A DNA stretch of 64,000 nt from an uncultured Nitrospiraceae bacterium (lineage in GTDB: Bacteria; Nitrospirota; Nitrospiria; Nitrospirales; Nitrospiraceae): positions 128,001 through 192,000 of the forward strand of contig CAVSTP010000002.1 in assembly GCA_963730935.1 (NCBI GenBank). Reading direction: 5' to 3'. The notes beneath the pieces were generated by a model, which was not told the origin of the DNA, did not search any database, and saw nothing but the letters and a program-made list of their open reading frames with translations. The translations under genes were made by a program, and so were the position numbers. Position 1 is the stretch's first letter; each line of letters begins with the position of its first letter. Positions 41,237-61,692 of the stretch are shown piece by piece.

Positions 41237-43054
41237 ATGACACCGACCACTGCCCACAGTAAACAGGCCGGCGAAACGCAGCTTCAACGGACGCTCACTT
41301 CGGTCCTCAATGATTTGCCGGTGGATTCGGCGCTGGCCGCCATCTTTCACCGCGAAAACGGTCCACTCGTGGGTCATGCCGCCCGAGGCTTCGCGCCGCG
41401 TGATGTCCAAGCCATCTTGCGCACGCTGTCCGCGCCGTCGATCGCTGCAGCAGGCACGCAGGACCAAGACGGAACCCGTACAATGCGGTTACGGATGGTC
41501 ACTCCGGGGGCCAAATCCCTGCTCGGTGTCCCTCTCAAGTACCGCAACCGGATGTACGGCTTTCTCGTCATTGGACGCAAGGAAAGCGCCGCCTTTACGA
41601 AAAAAGAACGCGGCCTGATGGACCAGGCCAGCGACGACCTAACGAAAGCATTGGACCGGGACAAGCTCTTCGACATGAATGTCGTGCTGAGCCGTCCCCT
41701 CGTCAACCAGGAACCGCCTACGGCTGGCCCTGCCGCCCCCGCCATCTACAGCCCACCCGTTTCCCAGGTGACTCCGCAGCTTCAAGAACAGATCACGGCG
41801 GTCCTGACCGATGCGGCCCAGACGGTATCCTATGATCGGGCTTGGGTGTGCCACTATGACCCGATCGCCGGCAGCGTTGAGGTGCTGGGGATGGCCGGCG
41901 ACCTGAAAGGCGACCACAAAGACGGGAAGAAGGACACGCGGCCCGGGCATCGCCTGGCGTTGGACAGTTCGGCAGCGGGCTGGGCGATTCGTCATCGAAA
42001 GCCCCGCGTCGATCACGATCTCGCGTCGACGCAGGGCCGATTCTTGGATCATAAGCAGCTCTTTAAAGACCGGTTCCAGTCTTCGTTGGTCTTTCCGTTT
42101 TTCGTCAGAGGGCAGGTCGGCGGCACCGTGACGCTGGCGTCTCGCGAAGCGGGCCGGTACCAGCCCACGGATGCTCGCACGCTTGAGCCGCTCATTCTCA
42201 AACTTGCCGATCTGCTCCAGGCTCCGTCGCAGGCGCCGGCTGCTCCTGCTCCGGCGGCCGATGACTCCGGGGAGTCCCCGGCTCCTGACCAACCGCCCTC
42301 CGTGCCCTTGGAGCCGATGATTCGCAAGCAGGAGCGACAGGCGGCCATCGGAGAATTCAGCGCCTTTCTCGCCACTGAAGTGCGCGAGCCGTTGGGTTCG
42401 ATCCGCGCACAACTGGAGGAAGTGACGGGAGAGGGCGTCCTGGACTTCGACCCCCAAACACGCGTGGAAAACGCCATGCGCGATCTGATCCGCGTGGAGG
42501 CGATCCTCAACGAAATCCTGGATTTCGCCAAGCCGCTCGAACTGAATCGACGCCTGGTCCGTGTCCCCGAGGTGATCGAAAGCGCGCTCACGGTCGTGGC
42601 CACGGATCTCGAGGTCACGAGAATCCATGTGGCAAAAGAGTATGCCCCCATCCTCGCCCCGGTGCGGGGAGATGAGGCGAAGCTGCAACAAGTCTTTCTC
42701 AGTATCTTCAAGAATGCTTGCGAAGCGATGACGCCGGGCGGACAGCTCACGATCCACGTGAGTCAACATCGGGCGGGGCGAGGCTTCGAGGATCAGATCC
42801 TGATCAAGAACGACGGGGCGCCGATTCCGCCGGAAATCGTGGACAACGTCTTTGAACCGTTTTTCACTACGAAGAAGGCGGGATCAGGCCTAGGCCTCGC
42901 CACGGTGAAGAAAATCGTCGAGGAACACGGCGGCTCGATCACGATCGGCAGCGCCCCCGGAGAAGGCACGACGGTCACCATCCGCCTGCCCGGGGTGAGC
43001 CGTGGCCCTGCATTCCGTCACCGCGGTCGCAGCCGCCGCCCTCATCGTCGTTAA
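41237..43054 (+). CDS. GAF-GAF sensor histidine-kinase-like protein lacking the phospho-acceptor His
   Basis: Two GAF-like regions; H-box reads LATEVREPL; HATPase motifs KNACEAM, NDGAPI, FEPFFTTK, GSGLGL, GEGT. Confidence 0.85.
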   Translation: MTPTTAHSKQAGETQLQRTLTSVLNDLPVDSALAAIFHRENGPLVGHAARGFAPRDVQAILRTLSAPSIAAAGTQDQDGTRTMRLRMVTPGAKSLLGVPLKYRNRMYGFLVIGRKESAAFTKKERGLMDQASDDLTKALDRDKLFDMNVVLSRPLVNQEPPTAGPAAPAIYSPPVSQVTPQLQEQITAVLTDAAQTVSYDRAWVCHYDPIAGSVEVLGMAGDLKGDHKDGKKDTRPGHRLALDSSAAGWAIRHRKPRVDHDLASTQGRFLDHKQLFKDRFQSSLVFPFFVRGQVGGTVTLASREAGRYQPTDARTLEPLILKLADLLQAPSQAPAAPAPAADDSGESPAPDQPPSVPLEPMIRKQERQAAIGEFSAFLATEVREPLGSIRAQLEEVTGEGVLDFDPQTRVENAMRDLIRVEAILNEILDFAKPLELNRRLVRVPEVIESALTVVATDLEVTRIHVAKEYAPILAPVRGDEAKLQQVFLSIFKNACEAMTPGGQLTIHVSQHRAGRGFEDQILIKNDGAPIPPEIVDNVFEPFFTTKKAGSGLGLATVKKIVEEHGGSITIGSAPGEGTTVTIRLPGVSRGPAFRHRGRSRRPHRR

Positions 43055-43178
43055 AGAATCCGGTTGCGCATCGTGCGATCCTCAAAGCAACAAGCCACTT
43101 GCATAGGGCAAAGTGGTTACCGGCAAGGCCGCAGAGGGCGAAGATTCGACAACCATTTTCAGCGGCGTTTTTCCCTGC

Positions 43179-43208
43179 TTGACAGCCCTCCCCCCCTCTG
43201 GCTATGAT
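43179..43208 (+). promoter_or_regulatory. sigma70 promoter
   Basis: TTGACA-18-TATGAT upstream of ORF 43288. Confidence 0.55.
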
Positions 43209-43287
43209 CCCGCCCACTTGATTCGCTGGTGATATCGGAACGCAACTTACGGCAATCTTCAGCCACCATTATTCAAAGGAGATGGGT

Positions 43288-43656
43288 ATGAAGCTCTTAT
43301 TTGGCATTGTTGCGATGGTTTCCGGTGTCTTGTTTGCGGTTTCCATGGCGTCGGCCAACCCAGCGCTGCTGCCCAAGCACGAGGGCTATCCGATGAAGAA
43401 CAGCGGTAGCCCGGTGAACGGACAGCCCACGGCGAACGATCCCGGCCAGTCGGATGCCCGCGGTCAATCCACACTGTCAAAGTCCGCTGGCTTTGACGAT
43501 GCTCACGTCAGCCAGAATCTCAAGAAAATGGACAATGACAGGGTTACGGCGAGCGAAGGAGCCGGTCGGCTTCCGAAGGTGCAGGGCCCGCAGATCCAGA
43601 TAGCTCCGCCCGTCACCTCCGCGACCAAGATCACGGGCGATCGCAAGATCGAGTAG
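43288..43656 (+). CDS. Secreted hypothetical protein
   Basis: AAGGAG SD; signal peptide ...ASA/NPALLPKHEGYP; has its own promoter and terminator. Confidence 0.8.
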   Translation: MKLLFGIVAMVSGVLFAVSMASANPALLPKHEGYPMKNSGSPVNGQPTANDPGQSDARGQSTLSKSAGFDDAHVSQNLKKMDNDRVTASEGAGRLPKVQGPQIQIAPPVTSATKITGDRKIE

Positions 43657-43673
43657 TCTCTTCATCGAAGCGC

Positions 43674-43717
43674 AAAAAAGGGGAGCGGTCCTCACGGGTC
43701 GCTCCCTTTTTATTTTT
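43674..43717. terminator. Bidirectional intrinsic terminator
   Basis: AAAAAAGGGGAGCG...CGCTCCCTTTTTATTTTT between convergent genes. Confidence 0.85.
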
Positions 43718-43763
43718 GTGCTCGATGCGATATTCGCGATCGGGCGACCTGACCACGGGCCGT

Positions 43764-44312
43764 TTACCAATCGGTGACTCTGAACCGATACGGTTTGCCG
43801 GCCCACTTCCCTGCATAGCTGACGCCGATCCGTGGAAATGCACCGATCTTTCCCCGCGGAATCTTCGTTCCCCGGTCTTCGAACCATAGATGCCGACGGG
43901 CCGTCATGTCGATGCAGTTCAACGAACGGTCGATTGAAAAGGCGCGGCATAGCCGCCCTGGCCCGTCAATCAACTGTCCCTCGACCTCCACGGCTCTGAT
44001 CAACACCGCAGCAGGAAATTCGGTTTCCTCCGTCACGACGTTCAAGCAGTAATACATGCCATAAATCATGTAGACGTAGGAGATGCCTGGGGGCCCGAAC
44101 AGAACCTGGGTCCTCAGCGTCCGTCCTTTGGAGGCATGGCATGCCAAATCATGGGGGCCGACGTACGCTTCCACCTCGACAATTCTCCCCGCCATGGTCC
44201 CGGCGCCCTTTTGCTTCACCAGATATTTGCCCAACAGCGATCGTGCGACCACGAGCGTCGAGCGGTTAAAATAGGGGCGTGGGAGAATCTTTCCCGGCGA
44301 AGTAGTTCCCAT
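43764..44312 (-). CDS. mpg: 3-methyladenine DNA glycosylase (AAG/MPG family)
   Basis: RIVEVEAY, DLACH, YVYMIYGMYYCLNVV, AVLIRA, GPGRLC, RIGV. Confidence 0.93.
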   Translation of the reverse strand: MGTTSPGKILPRPYFNRSTLVVARSLLGKYLVKQKGAGTMAGRIVEVEAYVGPHDLACHASKGRTLRTQVLFGPPGISYVYMIYGMYYCLNVVTEETEFPAAVLIRAVEVEGQLIDGPGRLCRAFSIDRSLNCIDMTARRHLWFEDRGTKIPRGKIGAFPRIGVSYAGKWAGKPYRFRVTDW

Positions 44313-44326
44313 GAGTCTCTTAACGA

Positions 44327-44488
44327 GGCTGCTCAAGACGAACTTGATTACACCCGCCCACCCGAGGCGCCGAGTGGCGCCTTTCCTCGAGCAAGGCCGC
44401 AGGGCAACGAAGGCCCGAGGCGTACTTTACCATGTACGTCGAGGGCCTAAGTAACCGAGAACGCAGTTGGAGTTTGTTTTCAGCAGCC
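44327..44488 (+). repeat. Palindromic MITE/REP-like element, copy 1
   Basis: Imperfect terminal inverted repeats GGCTGCTCAAGAC...GTTTTCAGCAGCC; core GAGGCGTAC-N8-GTACGTCGAG; homologous to 57985-58108. Confidence 0.75.
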
Positions 44489-44490
44489 GA

Positions 44491-46545
44491 TTAGAAATAC
44501 CAGGCAAGTCCGCCCATGAAAAACCGCGGGTTGCCAGGCACGAAGTGGATATCGTTGACCCCGGCTGGTTCGTTCTGCAACCGCGACTCAAAGAAGAATG
44601 TCGCCTGCTCCCATTTTGTATCGAAAAGGTTCTGAATGAACAAAAATGCCTCGAGCTTGCCGTGAGAAAGTTTTACGGGAAGCATATACCGTTCAGTGAG
44701 GTCGAAGACGAGCCATGAGGGAGATTTGGCGCTCCGGTCTTCGATCAAAGGACGAACGCCCATATACGTGGCCTGGAGCTGCGAGCGCAAGCCTTCTGGC
44801 CACTGCAAGATCAACGCGCCGTAGGCGGTGAGCTCGGGCGCCAGTGGTATCGCATCGCCGTTGGTGAACTTGGCGTTTGTCCAGGCGACACTGCTGTTCA
44901 CGTACAGCGGCCCCCATACTTGGCCTCGCAGTGCCACTTCCACACCCCTGCGTCTGGTCGGACCTCGTACCTCGGTCGTCCCTTCGTCTCCCACGAAGAC
45001 CAATTCGGACTGGAGATCGATCGCCCATAGGCTTGCGGTCAGCATCAATCCCTCCGGTCCCCACGGCTGGGAACGTAAGCCGACTTCATACGTCTTCGCA
45101 CGGGCGAGCGGCACTCCGCCCGGAGCCACGGCAGAGCGCGCATCGTTGCTGTGGTAGCCTTCGCCATAGTTGGCGAAAAATTCCGTCTTGAACCAGGGAC
45201 CGAGAATGAGATTAACCTTCGGCAACACCAGACCGGATGATGTCTTTCCTACCGGCTGGTCAACACAGGCATCACATCGGTTCGTGACGTTGAATGTAAA
45301 CATTTCGGCTCTGAGCCCGCCCATGAGTCGCAGCCATGGAGCTGGTTGTATTTCGGCTTTCACAAAGGGTGCATAGGAGGCTTCAAGCACATCGCTGTCT
45401 GTCGTGGTGCCGGTCGGGACGCGTTTCGTTTGTGTTCCGAGTCTCGCATGAATATCGTCCACACGGGCTTGGAAACCGATCGTGCCGATACTGGGCATTC
45501 CGAAGACTTCTGCACGCTGCTTGAATCCCAGATCACCAGTGTAGATGCCCCGGCGATCCGATTGCTGAATCCCGTCTCCGTTTACCGGATCATCTAAGAA
45601 AAAGGTGAAGTTCGTGAAGAGATCGAGTCGATAGTACTGTGCATGTGCATTGGCAAAGAACTGTCCCCCCGAAGGGGTATCATAATGATAGTTCAACCGA
45701 ACAGTGCTCCTGAGCGTGTTGCCCCCTTCGGAGGGATCAATCGCTCCGAAGCGGTCGAGGGTGCCATCGGCTACGGCACGCAACGGGATTTCTCCGGACG
45801 CGTTCCATTTTGCCTGTTGAAAGGTCGCTGTGAGGCTTAGTTCATCGCGGATTGAGAGATTCGTTGTCACCTTTCCGAGCAGATTCGCTCGGAAGTAACG
45901 GTTGTCGTTGAGAAAAGGTCCGTTCGTGTAGTACCCCTCTCCGGCGAAGAGCGTACGGATCTTGTCCTTCGTCGGAGAGAACATGAGCAGATAGCGTTGC
46001 GTGTCAAATTGCCCACCGGCCGCTTGGACCAGGCCCTCCTGAACGACCTGACGCGTTCGAAAGTTGATTGCCGCAGCGGTGTTGAAGTCCCCGAACTCTG
46101 GAAGATAGGACCCCTTGTACGCATCAAGCCCTTCGATCGTTTCTGGAATGATGAAGTTGAGATCGGCATAACCCTGGCCATGAGCGTGGGTCCGAAGGTT
46201 GATCGGCATGCCGTCGGTAAAAAAGGCTACGTCGGTCCCGTGGTCGGCATCGAAACCTCGTACAAAATACTGGTCGGCCTTACCGGCCCCGCCGGAATGC
46301 TCAACGGCGATGAAGCCGGGAATCAGCCGCAGCACCTGAGCCGGTCGGCCTTGCGGCTGCAGCAGAATTTCTTTATCTGGAATGAATTGCTGGGATGACG
46401 CCGCGACCGGCCGTTCACCGACGACCGTCACCTCGGGCACTTCCAACTCAGGTGCATCAGGATCGTGCGCCAGAGCGCTGTCTCCGCGGCACTGGGCTGT
46501 GATCACGATCACCAGAACGATGCAAGAGGGAAACAACCTGTTCAT
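44491..46545 (-). CDS. TonB-dependent receptor, probably for nickel/cobalt
   Basis: TonB box EVTVVG; plug RGFDADHGTD and HAHGQGYAD; C-terminal WYF; 18 bp downstream of nikR. Confidence 0.9.
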   Translation of the reverse strand: MNRLFPSCIVLVIVITAQCRGDSALAHDPDAPELEVPEVTVVGERPVAASSQQFIPDKEILLQPQGRPAQVLRLIPGFIAVEHSGGAGKADQYFVRGFDADHGTDVAFFTDGMPINLRTHAHGQGYADLNFIIPETIEGLDAYKGSYLPEFGDFNTAAAINFRTRQVVQEGLVQAAGGQFDTQRYLLMFSPTKDKIRTLFAGEGYYTNGPFLNDNRYFRANLLGKVTTNLSIRDELSLTATFQQAKWNASGEIPLRAVADGTLDRFGAIDPSEGGNTLRSTVRLNYHYDTPSGGQFFANAHAQYYRLDLFTNFTFFLDDPVNGDGIQQSDRRGIYTGDLGFKQRAEVFGMPSIGTIGFQARVDDIHARLGTQTKRVPTGTTTDSDVLEASYAPFVKAEIQPAPWLRLMGGLRAEMFTFNVTNRCDACVDQPVGKTSSGLVLPKVNLILGPWFKTEFFANYGEGYHSNDARSAVAPGGVPLARAKTYEVGLRSQPWGPEGLMLTASLWAIDLQSELVFVGDEGTTEVRGPTRRRGVEVALRGQVWGPLYVNSSVAWTNAKFTNGDAIPLAPELTAYGALILQWPEGLRSQLQATYMGVRPLIEDRSAKSPSWLVFDLTERYMLPVKLSHGKLEAFLFIQNLFDTKWEQATFFFESRLQNEPAGVNDIHFVPGNPRFFMGGLAWYF

Positions 46546-46563
46546 GTTTCATTCGAGAGGAGT

Positions 46564-46980
46564 CTAGCGCAGGGCCTTTCCAGTCGTGGTCATGGTCAAC
46601 TTGCCGTGCTTGACTCCCCTTACGCTGACCAACGCATCGGCAACTTTCTTGATATCCGAGCCGCGACCTTTAACCACTAACACTTCCAAACAATGATCGT
46701 GGTCGAGGTGGACGTGCATGCCGGACAGGATCTTTCCCTGGTAGTCATGCTGGATGTCGGTCAGCTTGGCCGTTAAGTCACGCACATGGTGGTCGTACAC
46801 GAAAGTGATCGTACCAACCGTTTCTTTGTTCTCGTCCCATTCCTGCCCGACCAGATTGTCCCGAATGAGATCCCGCAGCGCTTCGGACCGGTTGGTGTAG
46901 TGCCGCCGCCTGATGTGGCGATCGAATTCCTCGAGCAACCGTTGGTCTAATGAGACCCCAAATCGGACGAGTTGATGCAT
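46564..46980 (-). CDS. nikR: Nickel-responsive regulator NikR
   Basis: RHH motif RFGVSL...NRSEALRDLIR; Ni ligands in YDHH, QHD and HVHLDHDHC. Confidence 0.97.
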   Translation of the reverse strand: MHQLVRFGVSLDQRLLEEFDRHIRRRHYTNRSEALRDLIRDNLVGQEWDENKETVGTITFVYDHHVRDLTAKLTDIQHDYQGKILSGMHVHLDHDHCLEVLVVKGRGSDIKKVADALVSVRGVKHGKLTMTTTGKALR

Positions 46981-46995
46981 GACAACCTCCTCCGC

Positions 46996-47022
46996 GTGGC
47001 ACGAATTTAATATTCATAGCAC
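46996..47022 (-). promoter_or_regulatory. Putative NikR operator
   Basis: Minus strand GTGCTA-N15-TGCCAC with an AT-rich spacer, close to the GTGTTA-N15-TAACAC NikR-type palindrome; sits between the likely nikR promoter and its SD. Confidence 0.7.
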
Positions 47023-47251
47023 TGTAAAAATACAAGCGCAACCCGCACTCATTGTCTATGAGTCCTTTACGGCAAGTCAGCTCTGATCAGATTTGTCTCG
47101 ATGGGAGAAGGTCGCATCCCTTCAACAATCACCACCGATACAGAGTCCATCCAGAACAATACGAAAAAGGGAGGCGATCGGATTTCGCTGTTGGGCTGTT
47201 TTTCCCTTCTATTCGAAACCAGAACTATGCGTCGCCACAAAACACAACAAA

Positions 47252-47276
47252 GATCCAAACCCGAACATCCTTCGTA
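47252..47276 (+). promoter_or_regulatory. Putative ECF sigma promoter
   Basis: GATCC-N16-CGTA upstream of the DUF4331 operon. Confidence 0.5.
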
Positions 47277-47356
47277 GTGGATGACAAGCCGGCCGATGAG
47301 CTGATGACACAGCGCATCGACTGAACATCCGCCATCTCATTCAACAGGAGGAAACT

Positions 47357-47416
47357 ATGACGACCAAAATGGCCTCAGATGAAAGGACCGAATTATCGTT
47401 AAGGAGGTGTGTATGA
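47357..47416 (+). CDS. 19-aa leader ORF (MTTKMASDERTELSLRRCV)
   Basis: AGGAGG SD; stop overlaps the next start (ATGA). Confidence 0.4.
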   Translation: MTTKMASDERTELSLRRCV

Positions 47417-47634
47417 AATCGTCAGAATCTCGAGCGTTAAGTCTCGCGTTCACCATCGGTCTCTTGGCAGGCTGCAGCGGAAGCGACAACCCGCCTGTCG
47501 TAATGAGTGGACCAGCCGCCGCAGCGACAGATGATACGCGGGTCCCGCAATCAGACAACCTGACGGCAGCAGAAATGGCTCAGGTCAACCAAGCCAATGC
47601 GGAGCCGGTTCCACCACCGAAATCGGATCTCTAA
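47413..47634 (+). CDS. Small lipoprotein
   Basis: AAGGAGGT SD; LAGC lipobox; low-complexity tail. Confidence 0.7.
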   Translation: MKSSESRALSLAFTIGLLAGCSGSDNPPVVMSGPAAAATDDTRVPQSDNLTAAEMAQVNQANAEPVPPPKSDL

Positions 47635-47675
47635 TCAAACCCTGTCTCTATGGGGCATATGAGAAGGAGGAGGCT

Positions 47676-49148
47676 ATGTTTGCCAACACTCGGCCGCTCA
47701 TCATGACGATCCTGACACTGCTGATCGGCGCGCCGGTCTTTGCTGCCAGCCACCGTGAAGCGCCGTTGATCGCGAACGATCCGGCGGCGGATATCACCGA
47801 TTTCTATGTGTTCCGCAGTTGGCAAGATTCCGCCAAGGCAATTCTGATCATGAATGTGATCCCTGGACAAGAGCCGGGGTCCGGTCCTAACTACTTCAAC
47901 TTCGCCGACGACGTCCTGTACGAGATCCACATCGACAACAATAAGAACAACATCGCCGCAAACATCACGTACCAGATCCGATTTAAGACCGAGCTCAGAC
48001 CTCCGGCCGATGTCTTCCCTCTCTCCTATGTGGCGCTCCCTCCGATCACCAACCTGAGCGGAGCCGGCTCGGAGGGATTGCTTCTCCGCCAAAGCTACAC
48101 GGTGACAGAGGTGCGTTACGGCGAGCACCCCAGAGACCTAGGGACAGGCACGATGTACGCGGTGCCGTCGAACGTCGGCCCGCGAACGACGCCGAATTAT
48201 GAACAACTCGCTTCCAAGGGCATCTTCCCCTTGAAGAACGGGGGCCGCGTCTTTGCCGGACAGCGGGACGAGACGTTCTACATCGATCTCGGTGGGACCT
48301 TCGACACACTGAATCTCCACGTCTCGCCAATCCTCTCGGCAGCCGACGACGCGAACGACGCCTTGGTGCTCGGCGCTGCGCGCGACACTTTCAGCGGCTT
48401 CAATGTGAACACGATCGCATTGGAAATCCCGATCAGCGATCTGACAGGTCCGAACGGGAACAAAGTAATCGGCGCCTATGCGACGACCAGTCGGCCGAAG
48501 GTGACGGTCCTGAAAAAGAACAGCGACCGAGAGAACAGCGCCCGTTTAGTACAGGTCGCGCGAATGGGCAATCCGTTGGTGAACGAACTAATTATCCCCA
48601 CGAACATGAAGGACAAATGGAATACAACCGATGCGGAGGACGAGGGGGACTTCGTCTCGTTTTATTGCAACTCGGCGCTCGCAACCGCGTTGAACGCGGT
48701 GTTCGGAACAGCCTTTCCGACCAGCAATCGGGAGGACCTCGTCAACGCATTGCTTCGTTATAGCCCGGGGGCACCGCTCTGCGGCGGAGGCAAGACGAGC
48801 GAAACGTTGTCTGATCTCCTGCGCGTGGATTTAGGCGTCCCTCCCACAGCGGCGGACAATCAGCGGAGACTCGGTCCCCTGGCCCACGATCCGTCAGGCA
48901 ACCCCACTCCGGACAGAGCGGGATGGCCGAACGGCCGGCGCCCGAATGACGACGTCACCGATGTGGCCTTACGGGTTGTGGCCGGCATCCTCAAGAATTC
49001 AGCTGTTCCTAATTTAGGAGATGGTGTGAATTTCAACGTGGGATCGGTTGGCGGCAGCAAGACCGCTAATGGAATCGCGACGGCTTTTCCGTTTCTCCCG
49101 ACACCGTTCGATGGACGAGATCGTCGCCATATCGATCCAGGAGAGTAG
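47676..49148 (+). CDS. DUF4331 family secreted protein
   Basis: Signal + ASHREAPLI, DITDFYVF, VFAGQRDETF, ARMGNPLVNE, GWPNGRRPNDDVTD, FPFL. Confidence 0.9.
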   Translation: MFANTRPLIMTILTLLIGAPVFAASHREAPLIANDPAADITDFYVFRSWQDSAKAILIMNVIPGQEPGSGPNYFNFADDVLYEIHIDNNKNNIAANITYQIRFKTELRPPADVFPLSYVALPPITNLSGAGSEGLLLRQSYTVTEVRYGEHPRDLGTGTMYAVPSNVGPRTTPNYEQLASKGIFPLKNGGRVFAGQRDETFYIDLGGTFDTLNLHVSPILSAADDANDALVLGAARDTFSGFNVNTIALEIPISDLTGPNGNKVIGAYATTSRPKVTVLKKNSDRENSARLVQVARMGNPLVNELIIPTNMKDKWNTTDAEDEGDFVSFYCNSALATALNAVFGTAFPTSNREDLVNALLRYSPGAPLCGGGKTSETLSDLLRVDLGVPPTAADNQRRLGPLAHDPSGNPTPDRAGWPNGRRPNDDVTDVALRVVAGILKNSAVPNLGDGVNFNVGSVGGSKTANGIATAFPFLPTPFDGRDRRHIDPGE

Positions 49149-49252
49149 CTCACTCGGCTGATCACTGGGATGAGTGTGTCCGGTTTCCCGGACACACTCA
49201 TCCCGTGGGAAAAGTGCCTCGAGGCATTCAGACCCGAATCAAGAGAGGGCAC

Positions 49253-50206
49253 ATGTGGGTTCGAGTCGCTCAAGGAGACCAGATCGGAGGCTGGAGCGTC
49301 TCGCTCGTTCTCCATCTGACTCTGTTGAGTGTGATCTGGCCGGCACTCCAACAACTTCCGGCGCCGGTCTTGACGGAGCCCTTTCGCTGGAATGTGACCC
49401 TCGTTCAGTCCCAGCAACCGAGCGCAGCAGTCATGTCGTCGGGCGAAGCGTCTCTCCCCCATCAAGACTTACATGCTGTCGATGCGGCGACACAGAAGCC
49501 GGCACCGCCAAGACCGCCTCGTCCCTCCCTCGATCGATCACCAAGCAACGAAAATCGCATCACGGCTCACCCCGGCGCTGCGACGAGATCGGCGACAGTC
49601 ACAGTCCCGGCGCAAACCTCGCCTAACGTACCGGATGCCGCACCACCGACGTCTTCTATGACCGATCCACTGCCTGCGTCCCAAGAGTCTCCCCCCATAC
49701 CACACGAGAAGGCCGGTCAAATACAAAGGCTTGTTGCCACAGCACCAGTCCAGGCGGGGCCCACATCGACCGCATTGCCGCGAGAAGTGGAAACCCTGTC
49801 GCCACCTGCACCAGCCAGGATCGAGACTCCCGCAGTGATGCACGAGCCTTCTGCCCCATCGCCGGAACCCCCCGCTCCTGTTCCGTCGACAGCTTCCAGT
49901 GAGTTCTCTGGCCCTCGAGCGGATTACAGTTGGTTGCAACGGGCGGTGTCTCGCCGACTGGACGAACTGAAACGGTTCTCGCGACCATGGCTCGGGGACT
50001 CGACAAAGCTCAAGGTCCTGGTGAAGGCCGTCATTTCTAATTCTGGTGAACTGATGAAGATCGAAGTCGTCAAGAGTTCTGGATTGACACGGATCGATCA
50101 AGAGGCTTTGGCGCTGGTGCAGCGAGCCTTTCCCGTCTCGATGGACGAAGTCATCGACCGTCCCCAAATCGTAATGCGTATCCCGATCACCTATTCGCGT
50201 GATTGA
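49253..50206 (+). CDS. TonB-like energy transducer
   Basis: SLVLH TM anchor; Pro-rich linker; C-terminal EVVKSSGLTRIDQEAL...IPITY. Confidence 0.8.
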   Translation: MWVRVAQGDQIGGWSVSLVLHLTLLSVIWPALQQLPAPVLTEPFRWNVTLVQSQQPSAAVMSSGEASLPHQDLHAVDAATQKPAPPRPPRPSLDRSPSNENRITAHPGAATRSATVTVPAQTSPNVPDAAPPTSSMTDPLPASQESPPIPHEKAGQIQRLVATAPVQAGPTSTALPREVETLSPPAPARIETPAVMHEPSAPSPEPPAPVPSTASSEFSGPRADYSWLQRAVSRRLDELKRFSRPWLGDSTKLKVLVKAVISNSGELMKIEVVKSSGLTRIDQEALALVQRAFPVSMDEVIDRPQIVMRIPITYSRD

Positions 50207-50215
50207 AGGAGCACG

Positions 50216-51409
50216 ATGACCAGATGCTGCGGAGCAGGTTGTCTGATGGCGATTGCGTGGCTCACCTTGGGACTATCGTCCCCCACGTCGGGAGAGCCCT
50301 TTCTTCCCCAACAAGACACGCAAGTGCTAGAACGCCTCAGCGTCAAGTCATCTGATCCGGTGGCGCGAGAACTCAGGACCTTACGCGCGCGGCTATCGAG
50401 AAATCCACAAGACGTTGATGTCGCAGTATCGCTTGCGACCAAATTTGCTGCACAAGCGCGGTCGCTAGGAGATCCGAGATTTCTCGGTCAAGCGCAGGCC
50501 ATCTTGGCTCCTTGGTGGAACCTTCCGACACCGCCGCCCTCGGTTCTACTATTGCGAGCCACGATCCGCCAGAATGCGCATGAGTTCGATCTCGCGCTCG
50601 CCGATCTCGATGAGGTCTTGAGCCGGCAACCGACAAACGCTCAGGCGTGGCTGACGAAAGCGTCGATCCTTCAAGTTCAAGGACGATACGAGGAGGCTCG
50701 AGGTGCATGCCAGCCCTTGCTTCGATCGACCGGCCGGCATGTCGCACTCACCTGTTTGAGCGATATCGCCGGTCTGAGGGGCCAAGCCGCTCTTAGCCGC
50801 GATGTGCTGACCACGAGTCTGAGTCGTCCAGACATCTCCGTAGAGGAACGACTTTGGATTCTGACCATCTTGGCGGAGGTGGCCGCTCGCACCGGAGATC
50901 AACGAAATGCTGAAAGGTATTTTGAGGAAGCGCGAAGCATCGGCATGAAAGACCACTATCTCTTAGGGGCTTATGCCGATTTTCTACTCGATCAAGGCCG
51001 CGCGCAGGACGTCGTGGCGCTCCTGCAGCGCGATACGAGATCCGACGGATTGCTCTTACGTCTTGCGCTTGCCGAGCAGGCACTCCATGCACCCGCGTCA
51101 CAGGACCATACGGCCGAGCTTGCGGCCCGTTTTGCCGCCAGTCGTGAGCGAGGAACTCCTGTGCACTTGCGTGAAGAAGCGCGCTTCACTCTTGCGCTGC
51201 TGCAAGATTCACGGGCGGCGCTCCTCCTCGCCCAGAACAATTGGAAGATCCAAAAGGAACCTTCTGATGCCCGCCTGCTGCTCGAATGTGCCTGGGCAGC
51301 CGGTAACCGTCACGCAGCCAAACCTGTGCTCGAATGGCTCGACACGAACCATGTGGAAGGTGACAAGCTCCGACATCTGGCTGCACGGCTTCGAGAGGAG
51401 AGGCCGTAA
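50216..51409 (+). CDS. Secreted TPR-repeat protein
   Basis: Signal peptide; GDPRFLGQA; TPR repeats; HLREEARF...NWKIQKEP. Confidence 0.8.
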   Translation: MTRCCGAGCLMAIAWLTLGLSSPTSGEPFLPQQDTQVLERLSVKSSDPVARELRTLRARLSRNPQDVDVAVSLATKFAAQARSLGDPRFLGQAQAILAPWWNLPTPPPSVLLLRATIRQNAHEFDLALADLDEVLSRQPTNAQAWLTKASILQVQGRYEEARGACQPLLRSTGRHVALTCLSDIAGLRGQAALSRDVLTTSLSRPDISVEERLWILTILAEVAARTGDQRNAERYFEEARSIGMKDHYLLGAYADFLLDQGRAQDVVALLQRDTRSDGLLLRLALAEQALHAPASQDHTAELAARFAASRERGTPVHLREEARFTLALLQDSRAALLLAQNNWKIQKEPSDARLLLECAWAAGNRHAAKPVLEWLDTNHVEGDKLRHLAARLREERP

Positions 51410-52539
51410 TGCGCATCTTCCTCGTCATTGCGCTGCTTCTTATGAGCACGCCCGCCTGGGCTCATAAACCCAGCGACAGTTATCTCTCCCTCACTGTCCA
51501 TCAGGTTCGTGTGGAGGGTCGGTGGGACATCGCGCTGCGAGACTTGGACGACGCGATCGGACTGGACGGGGACGGGAATGGCGAGATCACATGGGGGGAG
51601 GTGCGATCCAGACACGACCAGATCGCTGCTTATGCACTCTCCCGCCTCACGCTTGCGTCAGGCGAGAGACGTTGCGCGACGAACGCCACCCGCCTGCTGA
51701 TCGACCATCACACGGACGGGGCCTACACGGTTCTCCTCTTCACAGCGACCTGTCCGGATCCAATAGAAGAGCTGCGCGCCGATTATCGGCTCTTGTTCGA
51801 TCTGGACGCTCAGCATAAAGGACTCCTGCGCCTAACTCATGGGTCTCATGCGTCCTTCACCACGAGCGCGATATTCAGCCAAGAGACCTCAGCTCAACGA
51901 TTCACGATCGGTGAAGGTTCACTGTGGCGTCAGGGTGGACAATACCTGCATGAAGGCATCTGGCACATCTGGCTAGGATTCGACCACCTCTTGTTTCTGC
52001 TCACACTCCTGTTGCCTGCAGTCCTCGTTCGAGTCGATCACCGCTGGCAAGCCATTGAAGATCTTTCATCCGCATCCTGGGAAGTGTTGCGCATTGTCAC
52101 GGCCTTTACCTTCGCACATTCTCTGACCTTGAGTCTCGCCACACTGGGAATCATGCAGTTGCCTTCACGACTCGTTGAATCAGCAATTGCGTCCTCGGTA
52201 ATTCTTGCTGGAGTGGCAAATCTGTATCCGGGGATCGCACAACGCCGTTGGGTGGTGGCATTCGCCTTTGGTCTCATCCACGGCTTTGGATTCGCCAGCG
52301 TGCTCTCAGATTTGGGATTGCCGCATGGCTCGTTGTTGGTCAGTCTTGTGAGTTTCAACGTCGGTGTTGAGATCGGCCAACTTGCGGTGGTAGTTCTGTT
52401 TCTTCCGCTAGCTCATGCCTTCCGCCGATCTTCGGCTTATCAGTTGATCGTCGTCAGAATTGGGTCTCTGGCAGTTATTGTCGTGGCGCTGCTATGGCTG
52501 GCTGAGCGGGCGTTCGACCTCAAACTTTTTCCGGTCTGA
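51409..52539 (+). CDS. HupE/UreJ-family membrane protein with a periplasmic N-terminal domain
   Basis: AWA/HKPSDSY; GIWHIWLGFDHLLFL, FTFAHSLTL, FGLIHGFGFA, FNVGVEIGQL. Confidence 0.9.
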   Translation: MRIFLVIALLLMSTPAWAHKPSDSYLSLTVHQVRVEGRWDIALRDLDDAIGLDGDGNGEITWGEVRSRHDQIAAYALSRLTLASGERRCATNATRLLIDHHTDGAYTVLLFTATCPDPIEELRADYRLLFDLDAQHKGLLRLTHGSHASFTTSAIFSQETSAQRFTIGEGSLWRQGGQYLHEGIWHIWLGFDHLLFLLTLLLPAVLVRVDHRWQAIEDLSSASWEVLRIVTAFTFAHSLTLSLATLGIMQLPSRLVESAIASSVILAGVANLYPGIAQRRWVVAFAFGLIHGFGFASVLSDLGLPHGSLLVSLVSFNVGVEIGQLAVVVLFLPLAHAFRRSSAYQLIVVRIGSLAVIVVALLWLAERAFDLKLFPV

Positions 52540-52553
52540 AAAACGAACGCGTG

Positions 52554-53966
52554 CTATTCGCCCCGCACGGGGATATAGAGAATGGTGCCCTGGCGGTTGA
52601 CCAGGAGCAGAGCGAGATCGCTCGATTTCATCGGATCGGCAATTCGTTGAAACGCAGAAAAGTTGGGGATGGGCTGGCGGTTTAATTCCAGAATCACGTC
52701 GCCCGGCTGAAGACCCGAGGATTCGGCCAAACTGCCTTCTTCAATATCGGTCACAACGACCCCGCTGTTGACCGGCAGATCCATTTGGCGCGCGAGCGGA
52801 GGCGTGACATCGTCGAAGACCACGCCCGACAGTGGGTGAGCGCCCGAACCCGTCGCGGTCGCCGCCTGACTCTTCCTCGCTCGGTCCCTCGGAGCTTCCT
52901 GCACGGTGAGTTCGACTTGGATCGTCTTGCCGTCCCGCACGAGATCCAGCCGGTGCTTGCTGCCGATTGCGGCGGCCGCCATCAGATTGCGAAGATGCCC
53001 GCTGTCCATGACATCACGTCCGTCGAACCGCTCGATGACATCGCCTCGTCTGAGCCCCGCCTTTTCCGCAGATCCCTTTGACTGCAAGTCGGTGACAATC
53101 GCGCCCTTCACATCCGGCAACTTGAAGATTTTTCCCAGCAGCGGGGTGACATCCTGCGTGGATGCGCCGAGAAATCCCCTCACGACCCGGCCGGTCTTGA
53201 TCAGGCTTTGCATGGCTGTCCTGGCCATGTTGCTGGGAATGGCGAACCCGACGCCGACACTTCCACCAGTAGGACTGGCGATTGCCGTGTTGATGCCCAC
53301 GAGCTCACCGTTGGTGTTGACGAGCGCACCGCCGGAGTTGCCTGGATTGATCGGCGCATCCGTTTGAATGAAATCTTCGAAATCCGCGACGCCGACGTCC
53401 GCCCGTCCCACGGCGCTGACGATGCCGAAAGTCACCGTCCGGCTGAGTCCCAAGGGATTCCCGATCGCCAGCACGAAATCACCGACGGCCAGGTTGCTGG
53501 AATCGCCCCAGGGCACTGTCGGCAAATTGGTGCTCTGAATCTTGACGACCGCGACGTCGGTCTTCGGATCCGTGGCCATCACCTTGCCTTTGAACTGCCG
53601 GCGGTCGGCCAAGATGACTTCCACGTCCACGGCATCCGCGACCACGTGGTTATTCGTGATGATGTAGCCATCGGAAGAGACGATGACGCCGGAGCCCTGT
53701 CCATATTGACGCCGAGCCGGCGGTTCTCTGAATAGACCGAAGGGCAGCGTTTCGTCACTGAACGCCTGGTCGCGCACCATGACGGTCGACGCGATGCTGA
53801 CAACGGCCGGAATCACTTTTGACGCCGTCGTCTTGACCTGATTTTGGAGGTCGTTGACGCCGACGACTGGAACTAACCGGCCGGCCGCCTCTGCCGAACT
53901 TCCCACGGCCAGGCTGATGCTCGCGGCAGCGACCAATCGCACCAGGGAACGGACAGCACTCGACAT
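52554..53966 (-). CDS. DegP/DegQ (HtrA) serine protease with two PDZ domains
   Basis: TNNHVV, DVAVVK, QTDAPINPGNSGGAL. Confidence 0.95.
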   Translation of the reverse strand: MSSAVRSLVRLVAAASISLAVGSSAEAAGRLVPVVGVNDLQNQVKTTASKVIPAVVSIASTVMVRDQAFSDETLPFGLFREPPARRQYGQGSGVIVSSDGYIITNNHVVADAVDVEVILADRRQFKGKVMATDPKTDVAVVKIQSTNLPTVPWGDSSNLAVGDFVLAIGNPLGLSRTVTFGIVSAVGRADVGVADFEDFIQTDAPINPGNSGGALVNTNGELVGINTAIASPTGGSVGVGFAIPSNMARTAMQSLIKTGRVVRGFLGASTQDVTPLLGKIFKLPDVKGAIVTDLQSKGSAEKAGLRRGDVIERFDGRDVMDSGHLRNLMAAAAIGSKHRLDLVRDGKTIQVELTVQEAPRDRARKSQAATATGSGAHPLSGVVFDDVTPPLARQMDLPVNSGVVVTDIEEGSLAESSGLQPGDVILELNRQPIPNFSAFQRIADPMKSSDLALLLVNRQGTILYIPVRGE

Positions 53967-54042
53967 ACCACCCTTTCTTTCAGAACTGCGCATAAGACCT
54001 TAAGAAACGTCGTAGCCTAGCACGGAGGCGGGGAGGACGCAC

Positions 54043-56553
54043 TCATAAATCTACATGCCGCAGACGAAGCGCGTTGGCAATGACGGAGACGGAGCTGAAG
54101 GTCATGGCAGCACTGGCAATCATGGGACTCAGCAGCACCCCCCACACCGGATACAGCGCGCCCGCCGCAAGAGGCACGCCAGCAAGATTGTAGACGAAGG
54201 CGAAAAAGAGATTCTGCCGGATGTTCTTCATGGTCGCCCGGCTGAGTCGGATGGCACGAACCAGCGCGCGCAGATCGCCTTTCACAAGCGTGATGCCCGC
54301 GCTTTCCATCGCAATGTCCGTTCCAGTCCCCATCGCAATCCCCACGTGGGCAAGAGCCAGCGCCGGCGCATCATTGATGCCGTCGCCTGCCATCGCGACC
54401 ACATGGCCTTGTGACTTGAGGTCCGCGACGATAGCGCCTTTTTTCTCCGGGAGCACCCCCGCATACAGGTCGGTGATCCCGACCTGTCGGGCGACGGCCT
54501 CTGCCGTTAGCTGGTGATCGCCCGTGACCATGACCAGCCGAATGCCCTGTTCTCTGAGTAGCCGGACGGCCTCAGGGGTCGTGGATTTCACCGGATCGGC
54601 CACACCGAGCAGTCCCGCAACCTTCCCATCCACGGCGATAAACACTGTCGTTTGTCCCTCCGCTCGCAAGCGCGCCGCTTCCTCTTCCAGCACGGCCAAG
54701 CCCGGATCGGCGATGTTCAGGCGTTCTCGAAGAAGCGTAGCGGTCCCCACTGCGACGGAATGTCCGTCGACGACACCGGTGACTCCATAGCCCGTGACCG
54801 AGCGAAATTCCTTGACCACTCCGGGCGTCGCCGCTCGCTGCTCGGCTTCAGCGATGACGGCAGAAGCAACCGGATGTTCACTCCGGCGCTCGAGACTGGC
54901 CGCGAGCCGCAACACTTCCGCGTCGCTCCACGGCGGCACGAAGCGAATGGAAACAAGCGCGGGTTTCCCTTCGGTGAGGGTACCCGTCTTGTCAAACACC
55001 AACGTGTCCACTTTGCCGAGCACCTCGAGGGCTTCCGCTTTATGGATCAGAACGCCGGCCGTCGCCCCCCGCCCCGTTCCCACCATGATGGACATGGGTG
55101 TTGCCAGTCCGAGCGCACAAGGGCAGGCAACAATCAGCACCGCCACCGCATTGACCAATGCATAGGCCAGCCGCGGTTCAGGCCCCCAGAGGCCCCACGC
55201 GATGGAAGTGAGGATCGCAACCGCAACGACCGCTGGGACAAAGTAGCCGGCCACACGGTCGGCAACCCGTTGGATGGGAGCACGGCTTCGCTGGGCGTCG
55301 CTTACCATTTGGACGATGCGGGCAAGCAAGGTGTCAGAGCCGACCCGTTCCGCCTGCATGAGGATGCTCCCGGCGCCGTTAATCGTACCGCCCGTCACCG
55401 GAGCGCCGGGGGATTTTGCCACCGGCAATGACTCTCCGGTGACCATCGATTCATCGACCACCGTCACACCTTCCGCGACAACGCCGTCCACAGGCACGCG
55501 TTCGCCCGGACGAACGCGTAGACGATCTCCGACCCTCACCTCGTCGAGCGACACGTCCGTCTCCTTGCCGCCCTCCCCGACACGCCTGGCCGTTTTCGGC
55601 GCCAGGCGCAGCAGCGCTTTCATGGCAGAAGTCGTTTGGCCGCGCGCGCGTAATTCCAAGACCTGCCCCAGCAACACCAATACCGTGATGACAGCCGCGG
55701 CTTCGAAATAGACAGGAATGGAACCATCGGATGCATGGAACGAAACCGGCAAGAGGCCAGGCGCGATGGTGGCCAGGACGCTGTAGAGATAGGCGGCTCC
55801 GGTCCCGAGGCCGATCAGCGTGAACATGTTCGGCGCCCGGTGAACGATCGAGTTCCAGGCGCGTTCAAAGAACGGCCAGCCTCCCCAGAGCACGACCGGT
55901 GTGGCCAGCCACAATTGAATCCAGTTTTTCACCGGGCCGTTGAGGATCTGACGCGCCGGTATCATATCGGCCATCGCCAAGGTCATCACGAGGAGCGCGG
56001 GACCGAGGCTGATCCAAAAGCGCCTCGATATGTCCAGAAGTTCCGGATTCGGTCGCTCTTCCAACGTGACGATTTTAGGCTCCAGCGCCATGCCGCAGAT
56101 GGGACAAGCTCCTGGCTCGGTCGAAACGACCTCCGGATCCATCGGACAGATGTATTCCACTTTGGAGCCGGGGGAAACGGCCGTCGGTTTCGTGATGCGT
56201 TGCGCCGGCGGGATCAGAAACGCAGCGGGATCCTGGCGAAACTTGGCCAAACAGCCTGTTGAACAAAAGTAGTACGTCTTACCTTCGTGAACATAGGAGC
56301 CGGCGGCGCTTTCAGGCTGAACGGTCATTCCGCATACAGGATCGACCTGTGCGCCCTTAGTGGCAGGGCTGGGCGGCATCATCTGAATCGTGATCAGGCC
56401 CGAGCTTTTCGGTCGAAGCGCCCGCTCTGGATCAGCTTTGAACGTTTCGAGACAGGAGGCGGCGCAAAAGTAGTAGGTGACGCCTTGATATTCGTATTGC
56501 CCGGCAGCCGTCGCCGGATCGACGGTCATACCGCAGATAGGATCGATCGCCAT
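54043..56553 (-). CDS. copA: Cu(I)/Ag(I)-translocating P1B-type ATPase with two YHS domains and a heavy-metal-binding domain
   Basis: [65 protein letters not shown]. Confidence 0.93.
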
Positions 56554-56693
56554 AGTAGGATCTCGGCCCTCCACTTGCTGCGGCCGCCCGTGGAGCGAAA
56601 CGTCTCGGCGCTTCGGGGTCGGGCGGGTGGAGAATGGTAGCCATTTTGACCATCCTCCAAGGCATCTTCTCCCGTCTCGTCACTGATCACTGT

Positions 56694-57347
56694 TCATTTT
56701 TTTCCGTCCCCATCGAGGATACTCTGAATCACGAGTCTCAGGTTTTCGGGATCGACTTTTTCCACTTTGATGTTGCCGTCCAAGAGAATAGTCGGCGTTT
56801 GCTGCAGCTTGATGCGCTCTCCCCACTTTTTGCCTTCTTCAACGAGTTGAGCCGGTTTTCCGCTGGCCATGCCTTCTTCAAAAGCCTTGGGATCGAGCCC
56901 GACTTCCTTGATCAGCACTTCCCGAATGGAGCGGTCGAGCACACCGGTTACCTTGTCCTGGTGAATCGTCCGGAAGAGCACTTTCTTCATTTCATTGCCT
57001 TTGCCCATCAGCTTGGCCTGTTCATACATGTCGAACGGCGTCGGCAGTTTTCCTCTGATCACGGGAAAGCCGACCATCGTCGTTTCGAGCTTCTTTCCGA
57101 ATTCTTTCTCGAGGATGGGCAGCCCTTCACCGTCGAAATGATGACAGTGTGGGCAGTAAAAATCTGCGAACTCCACCAGCTTGACCTTCCCTGATTGGTG
57201 AGTCGAGTGCTCATCCTTCAGGACTTCATATTTGCCCTTTAATTCCGAAGGGGCGGCCTGAACCGGCCCATTACCGTCAAAGAGAATGGTTGACAGCAGG
57301 ATTCCGGCGATCAACGTCATGCTAGTCCAACGTGCGATCTTGCCCAT
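56694..57347 (-). CDS. dsbA: DsbA family thiol:disulfide oxidoreductase
   Basis: Signal peptide; FYCPHC; cis-Pro motif QTPT. Confidence 0.8.
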   Translation of the reverse strand: MGKIARWTSMTLIAGILLSTILFDGNGPVQAAPSELKGKYEVLKDEHSTHQSGKVKLVEFADFYCPHCHHFDGEGLPILEKEFGKKLETTMVGFPVIRGKLPTPFDMYEQAKLMGKGNEMKKVLFRTIHQDKVTGVLDRSIREVLIKEVGLDPKAFEEGMASGKPAQLVEEGKKWGERIKLQQTPTILLDGNIKVEKVDPENLRLVIQSILDGDGKK

Positions 57348-61622: not shown

Positions 61623-61652
61623 GATGCGGCTCCTTACGTCATGAACGACACG

Positions 61653-61692
61653 CGTCCACGGGCGCACTTATTGCCTTTGCGGACCGTGGACG
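61653..61692 (-). promoter_or_regulatory. Stem-loop between the DUF2946-like ORF and the receptor RBS
   Basis: Perfect 9-bp stem CGTCCACGG...CCGTGGACG with inner CGCA/TGCG pairing. Confidence 0.55.

Follow-up and report, generated by a model that had tools for sequence, protein, structure and literature searches.

The window analysed here, 64,000 nucleotides of an uncultured Nitrospiraceae genome (assembly GCA_963730935.1, contig CAVSTP010000002.1, positions 128,001 to 192,000), carries at 44491..52539 seven genes that form two units and not one NikR system: a leftward operon encoding the regulator NikR and a TonB-dependent receptor (TBDR), and a rightward cassette built around an exported DUF4331 protein. 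The cassette, for which we found no prior study, is a conserved metal-handling unit joined to a core NikR-receptor operon; the names of homologues indicate Nitrospira. With moderate confidence, we propose that the two units serve the capture and uptake of nickel or copper, the receptor operon being repressed by NikR and the cassette driven by an extracytoplasmic function (ECF) sigma factor, with DUF4331 predicted to hold metal at an X-X-His tip. A sequence-only reading of this stretch had described a single nickel chain under NikR. Its open reading frames (ORFs), strands and spacing were all recovered where it had placed them, and its identities for the TBDR, NikR, DUF4331, TonB, a tetratricopeptide repeat (TPR) protein and a HupE_UreJ_2 permease were borne out by Pfam and NCBIfam.

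The leftward unit was analyzed in a family panel of 46 Nitrospiraceae genomes, comprising all 26 with DUF4331 and 20 listed without it. As nikR was found in 45 and the TBDR in all 46, with or without the cassette, nikR-TBDR is the core unit, and the DUF4331 cassette adjoins it upstream as an accessory block. In fact, all 20 cassette-free genomes examined have nikR-TBDR, mostly directly after a degP or histidine kinase gene. NikR (46564-46980, minus strand) matches NF003381/PRK04460 with 206 bits against a cut-off of 105, and the TBDR (44491-46545, minus strand) has the Pfam Plug and barrel domains, its His-rich plug containing three histidines (H83, H102 and H122) that are invariant in 17 receptors. 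Receptor homologues with 31-36% identity adjoin DUF4331 in distant taxa, and the TBDR is likely an outer-membrane importer of nickel (or cobalt). The histidine at its N-terminus is confined to Nitrospiraceae receptors, being missing from the 10 distant ones shown. Moreover, a block encoding a DsbA-like protein, a CopA-type P1B ATPase with YHS/HMBD domains, and DegP (52554-57347, minus strand) leads directly into nikR-TBDR in most Nitrospiraceae that lack the cassette, which marks the site as a standing metal and envelope neighbourhood. In 11 of 32 cassette loci (e.g., L032:5153-5578 and L042:13021-13446) and in several cassette-free genomes, nikR and the TBDR are separated by DUF3842, a candidate nickel protein of the NikR regulon; it is absent from that position in the window.

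Upstream of nikR, a sigma70-like promoter was read by eye (47013-47041, minus strand; TTGCGC-17-TATGAA, extended TG); it has the same layout in relatives, and a consensus scan did not list it. Its -10 element is covered by a 27-bp palindrome (46996-47022, consensus resembling GTGCTAC-N13-GT[AG]GC[AT]AC), which is found over the sigma70 -10 upstream of nikR in 44 relatives. A model built from these relatives, with the window held out, gave the site 37.1 bits, against 15.6 for the next-best one in the genome; with the half-sites alone, the values were 25.8 and 15.2, and the best score before the rightward operon was -7.5. From its position and symmetry, we infer that the palindrome is the NikR operator. 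It probably resembles the Geobacter NikR operator. It differs in both sequence and spacing from the E. coli operator, GTATGA-N16-TCATAC (PMC7055735). No operator-like site precedes the rightward operon (47051-47420, best score -12.7 as to 37.1 at nikR) or lies within it, and no second strong palindrome was detected in 35 Nitrospirota loci, a search which presumes that the palindrome is the operator. NikR would then govern the left arm only, and the earlier claim that it also controls the rightward operon falls away. Overall, the left arm is reminiscent of the NikR-repressed TonB-dependent nickel receptors (FecA3/FrpB4 in H. pylori, and the predicted Bll6948 and Daro_3944), as these are presented in the available text of PMC11247825; the likeness is one of layout, a nikR-adjacent receptor and a palindrome over the promoter. 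The left arm differs from them in gaining an ECF promoter where the cassette occurs.

The DUF4331 family is large and spans several phyla (4,738 representatives at 50% identity); a survey of the phylum detected it in 36 of 401 genomes and, within Nitrospiraceae, in 25 of 75 other genomes. From 35 Nitrospirota loci fetched, three with short or divergent DUF4331 were dropped; in the remaining 32, the TPR protein is always a neighbour, followed by the HupE-type permease (28), an ECF sigma/anti-sigma pair (27), the TBDR (26), nikR (24) and TonB (20). Two distant samples were then compared. Set one consists of the best 80 of 607 GTDB loci by likeness to a second DUF4331 subfamily, and is therefore likeness-biased; removal of two Nitrospira left 78 loci, of which 47 have 5 kb on both sides. 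For set two, 401 genomes were drawn evenly from the phylum to which a Duganella genome belongs; 16 had DUF4331, giving 16 loci in 15 genomes once the centre genome was excluded. Set one contains TPR in 53 loci, the permease in 48 (TPR and permease together in 48 of the 78), the ECF pair in 28, and a receptor of the same family in 12, and its 47 fully flanked loci contain TPR in 38, permease in 36, ECF pair in 19, TBDR in 11 and nikR in none. In set two, TPR, permease and ECF pair were each found in 12 loci, the promoter motif in 11, and the TBDR in three. The link between DUF4331 and this receptor family, proposed earlier, is thus seen in 3/16 and 12/78 distant loci, and the receptor gene at times lies inside the cassette operon (loci L101, L112 and L116). 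Adjacency to nikR, which holds in 24 of 25 family loci, is no general trait (0/16 and 1/78), nor is a dedicated TonB a general part of the cassette (20/25 family loci; 0/16 and 0/78 distant loci, as counted with neighbour profiles that were built from the surveyed loci and can overlook remote types of TonB or sigma factor). The cassette was also found in actinobacteria. A quick-search tree placed two deep DUF4331 subfamilies at the nikR-adjacent site in Nitrospiraceae; as its outside rows had been picked by likeness to one subfamily, we claim neither a donor nor independent insertions.

Control of the cassette by an ECF sigma factor is suggested by its neighbourhood in relatives, where genes for the sigma factor and a ChrR-cupin anti-sigma factor lie between nikR and the lipoprotein gene that opens the cassette (24/25 family loci), and by a motif, ATCC[AG]-N14/15-YCGTA, that is found repeatedly ahead of the operon, the sigma gene and nikR. 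A position weight matrix (PWM) trained on pre-operon and pre-sigma-gene sites only, with the window held out, found three sites in the 430-bp gap of the window: the ECF18-type promoter of the rightward operon (47250-47279, plus strand, GATCCA..N..TCGTAG, 22.5 bits), a site facing nikR (47157-47186, minus strand, 25.8 bits), and a degenerate one, also facing nikR (47066-47095, minus strand), whose 11.9 bits compare to 9.2 at the 99th percentile of random windows. The two stronger sites rank third and second in the genome, respectively; the top site lies on contig C2 at position 284600 (minus strand, 27.4 bits). Scoring above the random 99th percentile, an ECF-type promoter is present upstream of nikR in 21 of 24 cassette-bearing genomes as compared to 4 of 20 cassette-free ones, three of these four showing the 3' end of an anti-sigma gene. 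In set one, the motif precedes 46 of 71 testable genes, against 108 of 3550 random windows.

The divergent arrangement of nikR and the lipoprotein gene described earlier is real in this genome, and is the product of a deletion: the ECF pair held there by relatives is not visible in the window because the source genome lost it. The left part of the gap aligns to nikR-upstream DNA and its right part to the ECF promoter and 5' end of relatives, with the approximate junction at 47115-47127. Since the gap thus reads as the sigma promoter joined to nikR-upstream DNA, we conclude from these alignments that the pair is deleted and its promoters are kept, the site at 47157-47186 being the former autoregulatory promoter of the sigma gene. 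Junction alignment scores of 48 and 40 exceeded the shuffled maxima (31 and 30) in two of six relatives, the other four not rising above shuffles, and tblastn detected no protein remnant of the sigma gene at the locus. On contig C1 (179441-180730), the genome has a 52%-identical orphan ECF/ChrR-cupin pair with a loose motif (PWM below 15 bits). It lies near an apparent serine recombinase gene, read by eye, and is a candidate source of a trans-acting sigma factor.

Regarding its class, the sigma factor has SigK as its best NCBIfam match, below cut-off (189 against 226). Together with the GCATCC/CGTA-type promoter, this likens the system to ECF18/ECF19 (RpoT, RpoP, SigK-RskA). As expected of such regulons, both the operon and the sigma gene are preceded by ATCC..CGTA promoters; the locus departs from them in that the Nitrospira anti-sigma factor is a soluble one of ChrR cupin type (compare ECF19s19 or ECF11), and in that the window lacks a local pair through the deletion. 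The motif of the rightward operon matches the ECF18 consensus promoter in Table 4 of PMC13492112, and the supplement of PMC7826278 has DUF4331 at position +2 of subgroup ECF18s13, for which no regulon function is described in the available parts of these two sources. A literature search for ECF sigma and anti-sigma factors with HupE returned only an unrelated match.

The metal-binding role predicted for DUF4331 (47676-49148, plus strand; Pfam E 1e-106) centres on its N-terminus. H26 is invariant in 90 and in 67 sequences, and it is the sole metal-type residue invariant across the 90 diverse ones, that wide alignment having no second conserved His/Cys/Met site. Among 150 representatives, 116 have a signal peptide and the motif; these show Ala three residues before the histidine in 104 cases, a small residue at -5, and at -1 Ser in 96% and never Ala, compared to the control of a His1 permease, with Ala at -1 in 55 of 55. 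Moreover, seven of the 150 representatives lack a signal peptide and begin M-[ST]-S-H. As both the cleavage statistics and these signal-less forms point there, the mature protein most likely starts with X-X-His, predicted as Ala-Ser-His in the window. The sequence-only reading had noted histidines at or near three mature N-termini; these are present, with that of DUF4331 most probably at position 3. A free amine followed by X-X-His is the pattern named ATCUN for its Cu(II) and Ni(II) binding at the amino terminus, known mostly from albumin-like proteins and peptides. Its name and copper affinity are treated in PMC11483739. DUF4331 is predicted to share the pattern and differs in being a large bacterial exported family with the pattern as its conserved tip, the cleavage site being itself predicted. 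DUF4331 is therefore predicted to grip Ni(II) or Cu(II) at this tip, and the metal role proposed earlier gains support from the invariant histidine and from constant linkage to a permease of Ni/Co type with a His1 domain.

DUF4331 has no clear counterpart among solved folds. Its AlphaFold2 model (pLDDT 89) gave no Foldseek match at E 0.001 or better; the best VIA-align hit (Sas6, Z 8.5, root mean square deviation 5.0, 210 aligned) is within the range of common arrangements, and CBM9/DOMON-type chains reach a Z of about 5, tied with antibody domains. Sequence searches of the PDB returned nothing for DUF4331 or the permease, and a protein atlas search with DUF4331 clusters left out gave no usable match. 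Exported nickel-binding DUF4198 proteins (PDB 9GCB) are likewise encoded beside TBDR or nikR genes, according to the available text of PMC12537917; they belong to another family, are absent from the listed DUF4331 fold matches, and have His1 in place of the His3 predicted for DUF4331, which is about 470 residues long with a conserved core. In a literature search that left most subscription papers and supplements outside its reach, no paper was found on DUF4331 or linking TonB, nickel, NikR and Nitrospira, and nothing on ATCUN-tipped nickel-binding secreted bacterial proteins, matches to ATCUN with signal peptide or periplasm concerning other proteins by title and abstract start.

The last gene of the cassette (51409-52539, plus strand) had been called a HupE/UreJ permease. 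This stands for residues 179-341, covered by PF13795 (E 8e-48; H186, H193, H237 and H291 invariant), whereas the N-terminal half is a separate, anglerase-type His1 domain; classical HupE/UreJ, PF04955, scored 16.6 bits against a threshold of 23. Residues A18-H19 are invariant in 55 sequences, placing a histidine directly after the signal peptide. Foldseek gave PDB 9GCE (Ang-1) as the top match (E 6.4e-6, target TM-score 0.63), followed by the zinc proteins ZrgA and PA4063. The permease therefore has the composition of the anglerases Ang-1/Ang-2::HupE/UreJ-2 (signal peptide, His1, beta-sandwich and PF13795 membrane domain; PMC12537917), at only 16% identity to 9GCE and with no sequence match. 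Purified Ang-1 binds copper (74 nM) and nickel (220 nM), 9GCE being the copper-bound form, and uptake is the role that this paper proposes for anglerases (Franco Cairo et al. 2025). Its available text describes no DUF4331, TPR or ECF partners, and DUF4331 enters its neighbour tables with counts of only 1 and 2. The permease gene is preceded by that of the exported TPR protein (50216-51409, plus strand; Pfam), in which H122 is invariant and C165 and H317 are near-invariant.

The cassette begins with a small acidic lipoprotein of 73 residues (47413-47634, plus strand; lipobox LAGC), which has no Pfam or NCBIfam family above cut-off, is conserved in Nitrospiraceae, and has a similar counterpart after DUF4331 in 31 of 78 distant loci. 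A perfect 17-bp hairpin follows DUF4331 (49167-49204, plus strand). Of 32 Nitrospirota loci, 22 have a stem of at least 9 bp downstream of DUF4331; where the lipoprotein gene comes after DUF4331, such a stem follows that gene in 16 of 35 loci, and none was found after TPR (0/85; background 6/555). The hairpin may be an expression step-down, and its placement suggests an abundant product with scarce helpers. TonB (49253-50206, plus strand; likely start ATG 49253, the longest ORF running from GTG 49205) has the TonB_C domain, scores 30.8 in TIGR01352 against a cut-off of 27.1, and contains the S-x-x-L-H transmembrane motif. At locus L049 (12972-13940), tonB stands between nikR and DUF3842-TBDR, outside the DUF4331 operon, a hint that TonB serves the nikR-adjacent receptor.

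Based on these results, we envisage that NikR likely represses the nikR-receptor operon when nickel is plentiful. An envelope or redox signal would free the ECF sigma factor from its ChrR-cupin partner; in the source genome, as the local pair is deleted, the sigma factor must act in trans, coming for example from the 52%-identical orphan pair at 180.7 kb of C1. The sigma factor would then fire the rightward promoter and, to judge from their motifs, the promoters facing nikR-TBDR. With sigma promoters on both arms, receptor and cassette can rise together, NikR capping the receptor arm only. The hairpin would leave the lipoprotein and DUF4331 in excess over TonB, TPR and permease; DUF4331 would chelate the metal by its free amine and His3, and, with TonB energising the receptor, TPR and the anglerase His1 domain might unload the metal into the HupE/UreJ-2 channel.

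Several results weigh against uptake as just outlined. According to the supplement of PMC7826278, the signals sensed by ChrR-type and ECF18/19 systems are mostly redox, light or solvents, and metal-stress and metal-starvation data from C. metallidurans showed no start site at predicted ECF18 promoters (PMC13492112, as far as available). In 112 of 116 DUF4331 sequences, cleavage after Ser, which would leave His at position 1, is also formally permitted. Surface or secretion tags (RTX, SLH, T9SS/FlgD, LysM, DUF4214) occur in 11 of 37 long, length-chosen homologues, others having CHRD, cupredoxin or carbonic anhydrase domains, so that the purely periplasmic DUF4331/TPR relay of the sequence-only reading is not supported. 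On three Rhodobacterales plasmids, DUF4331 and a single small gene adjoin a type II secretion system (T2SS) cluster, with neither TPR nor permease in the stretches shown. Urease, present in the source genome, occurs in 23 of 26 cassette genomes and 13 of 20 cassette-free ones, so a tight tie to urease is not supported. Finally, an RcnA-like (NicO/RcnA) His1-type fusion serves as the permease in 6 of 112 surveyed loci (four other Nitrospirota and two GTDB) and in two streptomycete plasmids, five of all eight cases having built the profile; its best NCBIfam match is a Ni/Co efflux transporter, below cut-off. That the last slot of the cassette alternates between two unrelated families of Ni/Co permease speaks, for its part, in favour of the main proposal.

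The RcnA-like swap is among the evidence for a possible, though less probable, alternative, that DUF4331 itself uses the metal, as an abundant metalloprotein of the surface or medium and perhaps an enzyme, to which TPR and permease, as its maturation factors, deliver nickel or copper exported from the cytoplasm or obtained from the receptor. RcnA has been proposed to supply periplasmic nickel in cable bacteria (PMC11247825, available text), and metal loading would also fit the surface tags, the sortase and T2SS neighbours, the step-down hairpin after DUF4331/lipoprotein, the many invariant core residues beyond the tip (e.g., the PNGRR..DD stretch) and the actinobacterial cassettes. Nevertheless, a surface position suits a scavenger equally, HupE-family members are importers (PMC11247825, same text), the RcnA-like proteins score below cut-off with their export direction predicted, and DUF4331 has neither an enzyme fold match nor a further conserved His/Cys/Met site.

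We consider it improbable that the cassette is a redox- or light-induced stress regulon in which DUF4331 holds copper or nickel redox-silent, with no nutritional role. The ChrR cupin anti-sigma factor would suit such a function, as would fasciclin and catalase neighbours, the adjoining copA, dsbA and degP, and a truncated globin, found in 6/32 Nitrospirota and 4/78 distant loci and, at another place in the source genome, downstream of the ECF motif; it leaves unexplained, however, the recurring receptor, the ECF promoter before nikR-TBDR and TonB, and the copA-degP block is also present in cassette-free genomes. Least probable is the original single NikR-governed nickel chain, in which DUF4331 and TPR would relay the metal through the periplasm to urease or hydrogenase: in spite of the nikR adjacency within the family, a locus running DUF4331-lipoprotein-TPR-HupE-nikR-TBDR in one direction (L037), a betaproteobacterial locus with nikR right after HupE (L143), and the urease of the source genome, it conflicts with the missing operator, the cassette-free nikR-TBDR units and the near-absence of nikR from distant loci, and three of 26 cassette genomes lack urease while the source genome has weak hydrogenase-family matches only (PF00374 at 1e-15 was found in 2 of 46 genomes, a cut-off probably too strict and not used).

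More tentatively, we suggest that DUF4331 proteins at large are widespread and abundant surface metalloproteins with a genetically fixed X-X-His site for nickel or copper at their tip, loaded or unloaded by a dedicated machine of TPR and an anglerase-permease, interchangeably of HupE or RcnA type, and that in Nitrospira the sigma promoter brought by the cassette before the core NikR receptor created a two-input switch outlasting the local loss of the sigma factor. Through this locus, DUF4331 acquires partners, a promoter and a predicted binding site, together with a function that can be tested, and anglerase permeases acquire a genetic context for settling transport direction. The locus further points, in nitrifiers, to a likely nickel receptor and to candidates for the NikR operator and a sigma regulon, with relevance to the metal supply of Nitrospira to urease and other metalloenzymes. 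A link to comammox and ammonia monooxygenase was rejected: amoA is present in 17 of 26 cassette and 7 of 20 cassette-free genomes (24 of 46 in all), kin that are not independent, and the source genome has no amoA.

Further observations concern the surroundings and the wider families. An Rfam scan of 43000-54000 gave no riboswitch and one chance-level snoRNA match, and RNA runs yielded assembled contigs that are patchy and in part derive from other strains. The TBDR is followed by an mpg gene and, further on, by a gene for a small exported protein (43282-43656, plus strand), with no Pfam family and 70-85% identity across Nitrospiraceae, and a second TBDR (59271-61667, minus strand) has a long N-terminal extension and a PqqU-type best match, below cut-off. 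The truncated globin found in cassettes is of a lipoprotein type (e.g., L031:10449-11006); the source genome has copies at C1:105690-106202 and C4:667679-668041, the former with an ECF motif upstream. Elsewhere, some DUF4331 proteins (P0215, P0223, P0124 and P0157) are fusions with a cupredoxin, alpha carbonic anhydrase, cytochrome c-like or CHRD domain, and on the Sulfitobacter, Paracoccus and Jannaschia plasmids (L146, L172 and L173) DUF4331 is a candidate dedicated T2SS substrate.

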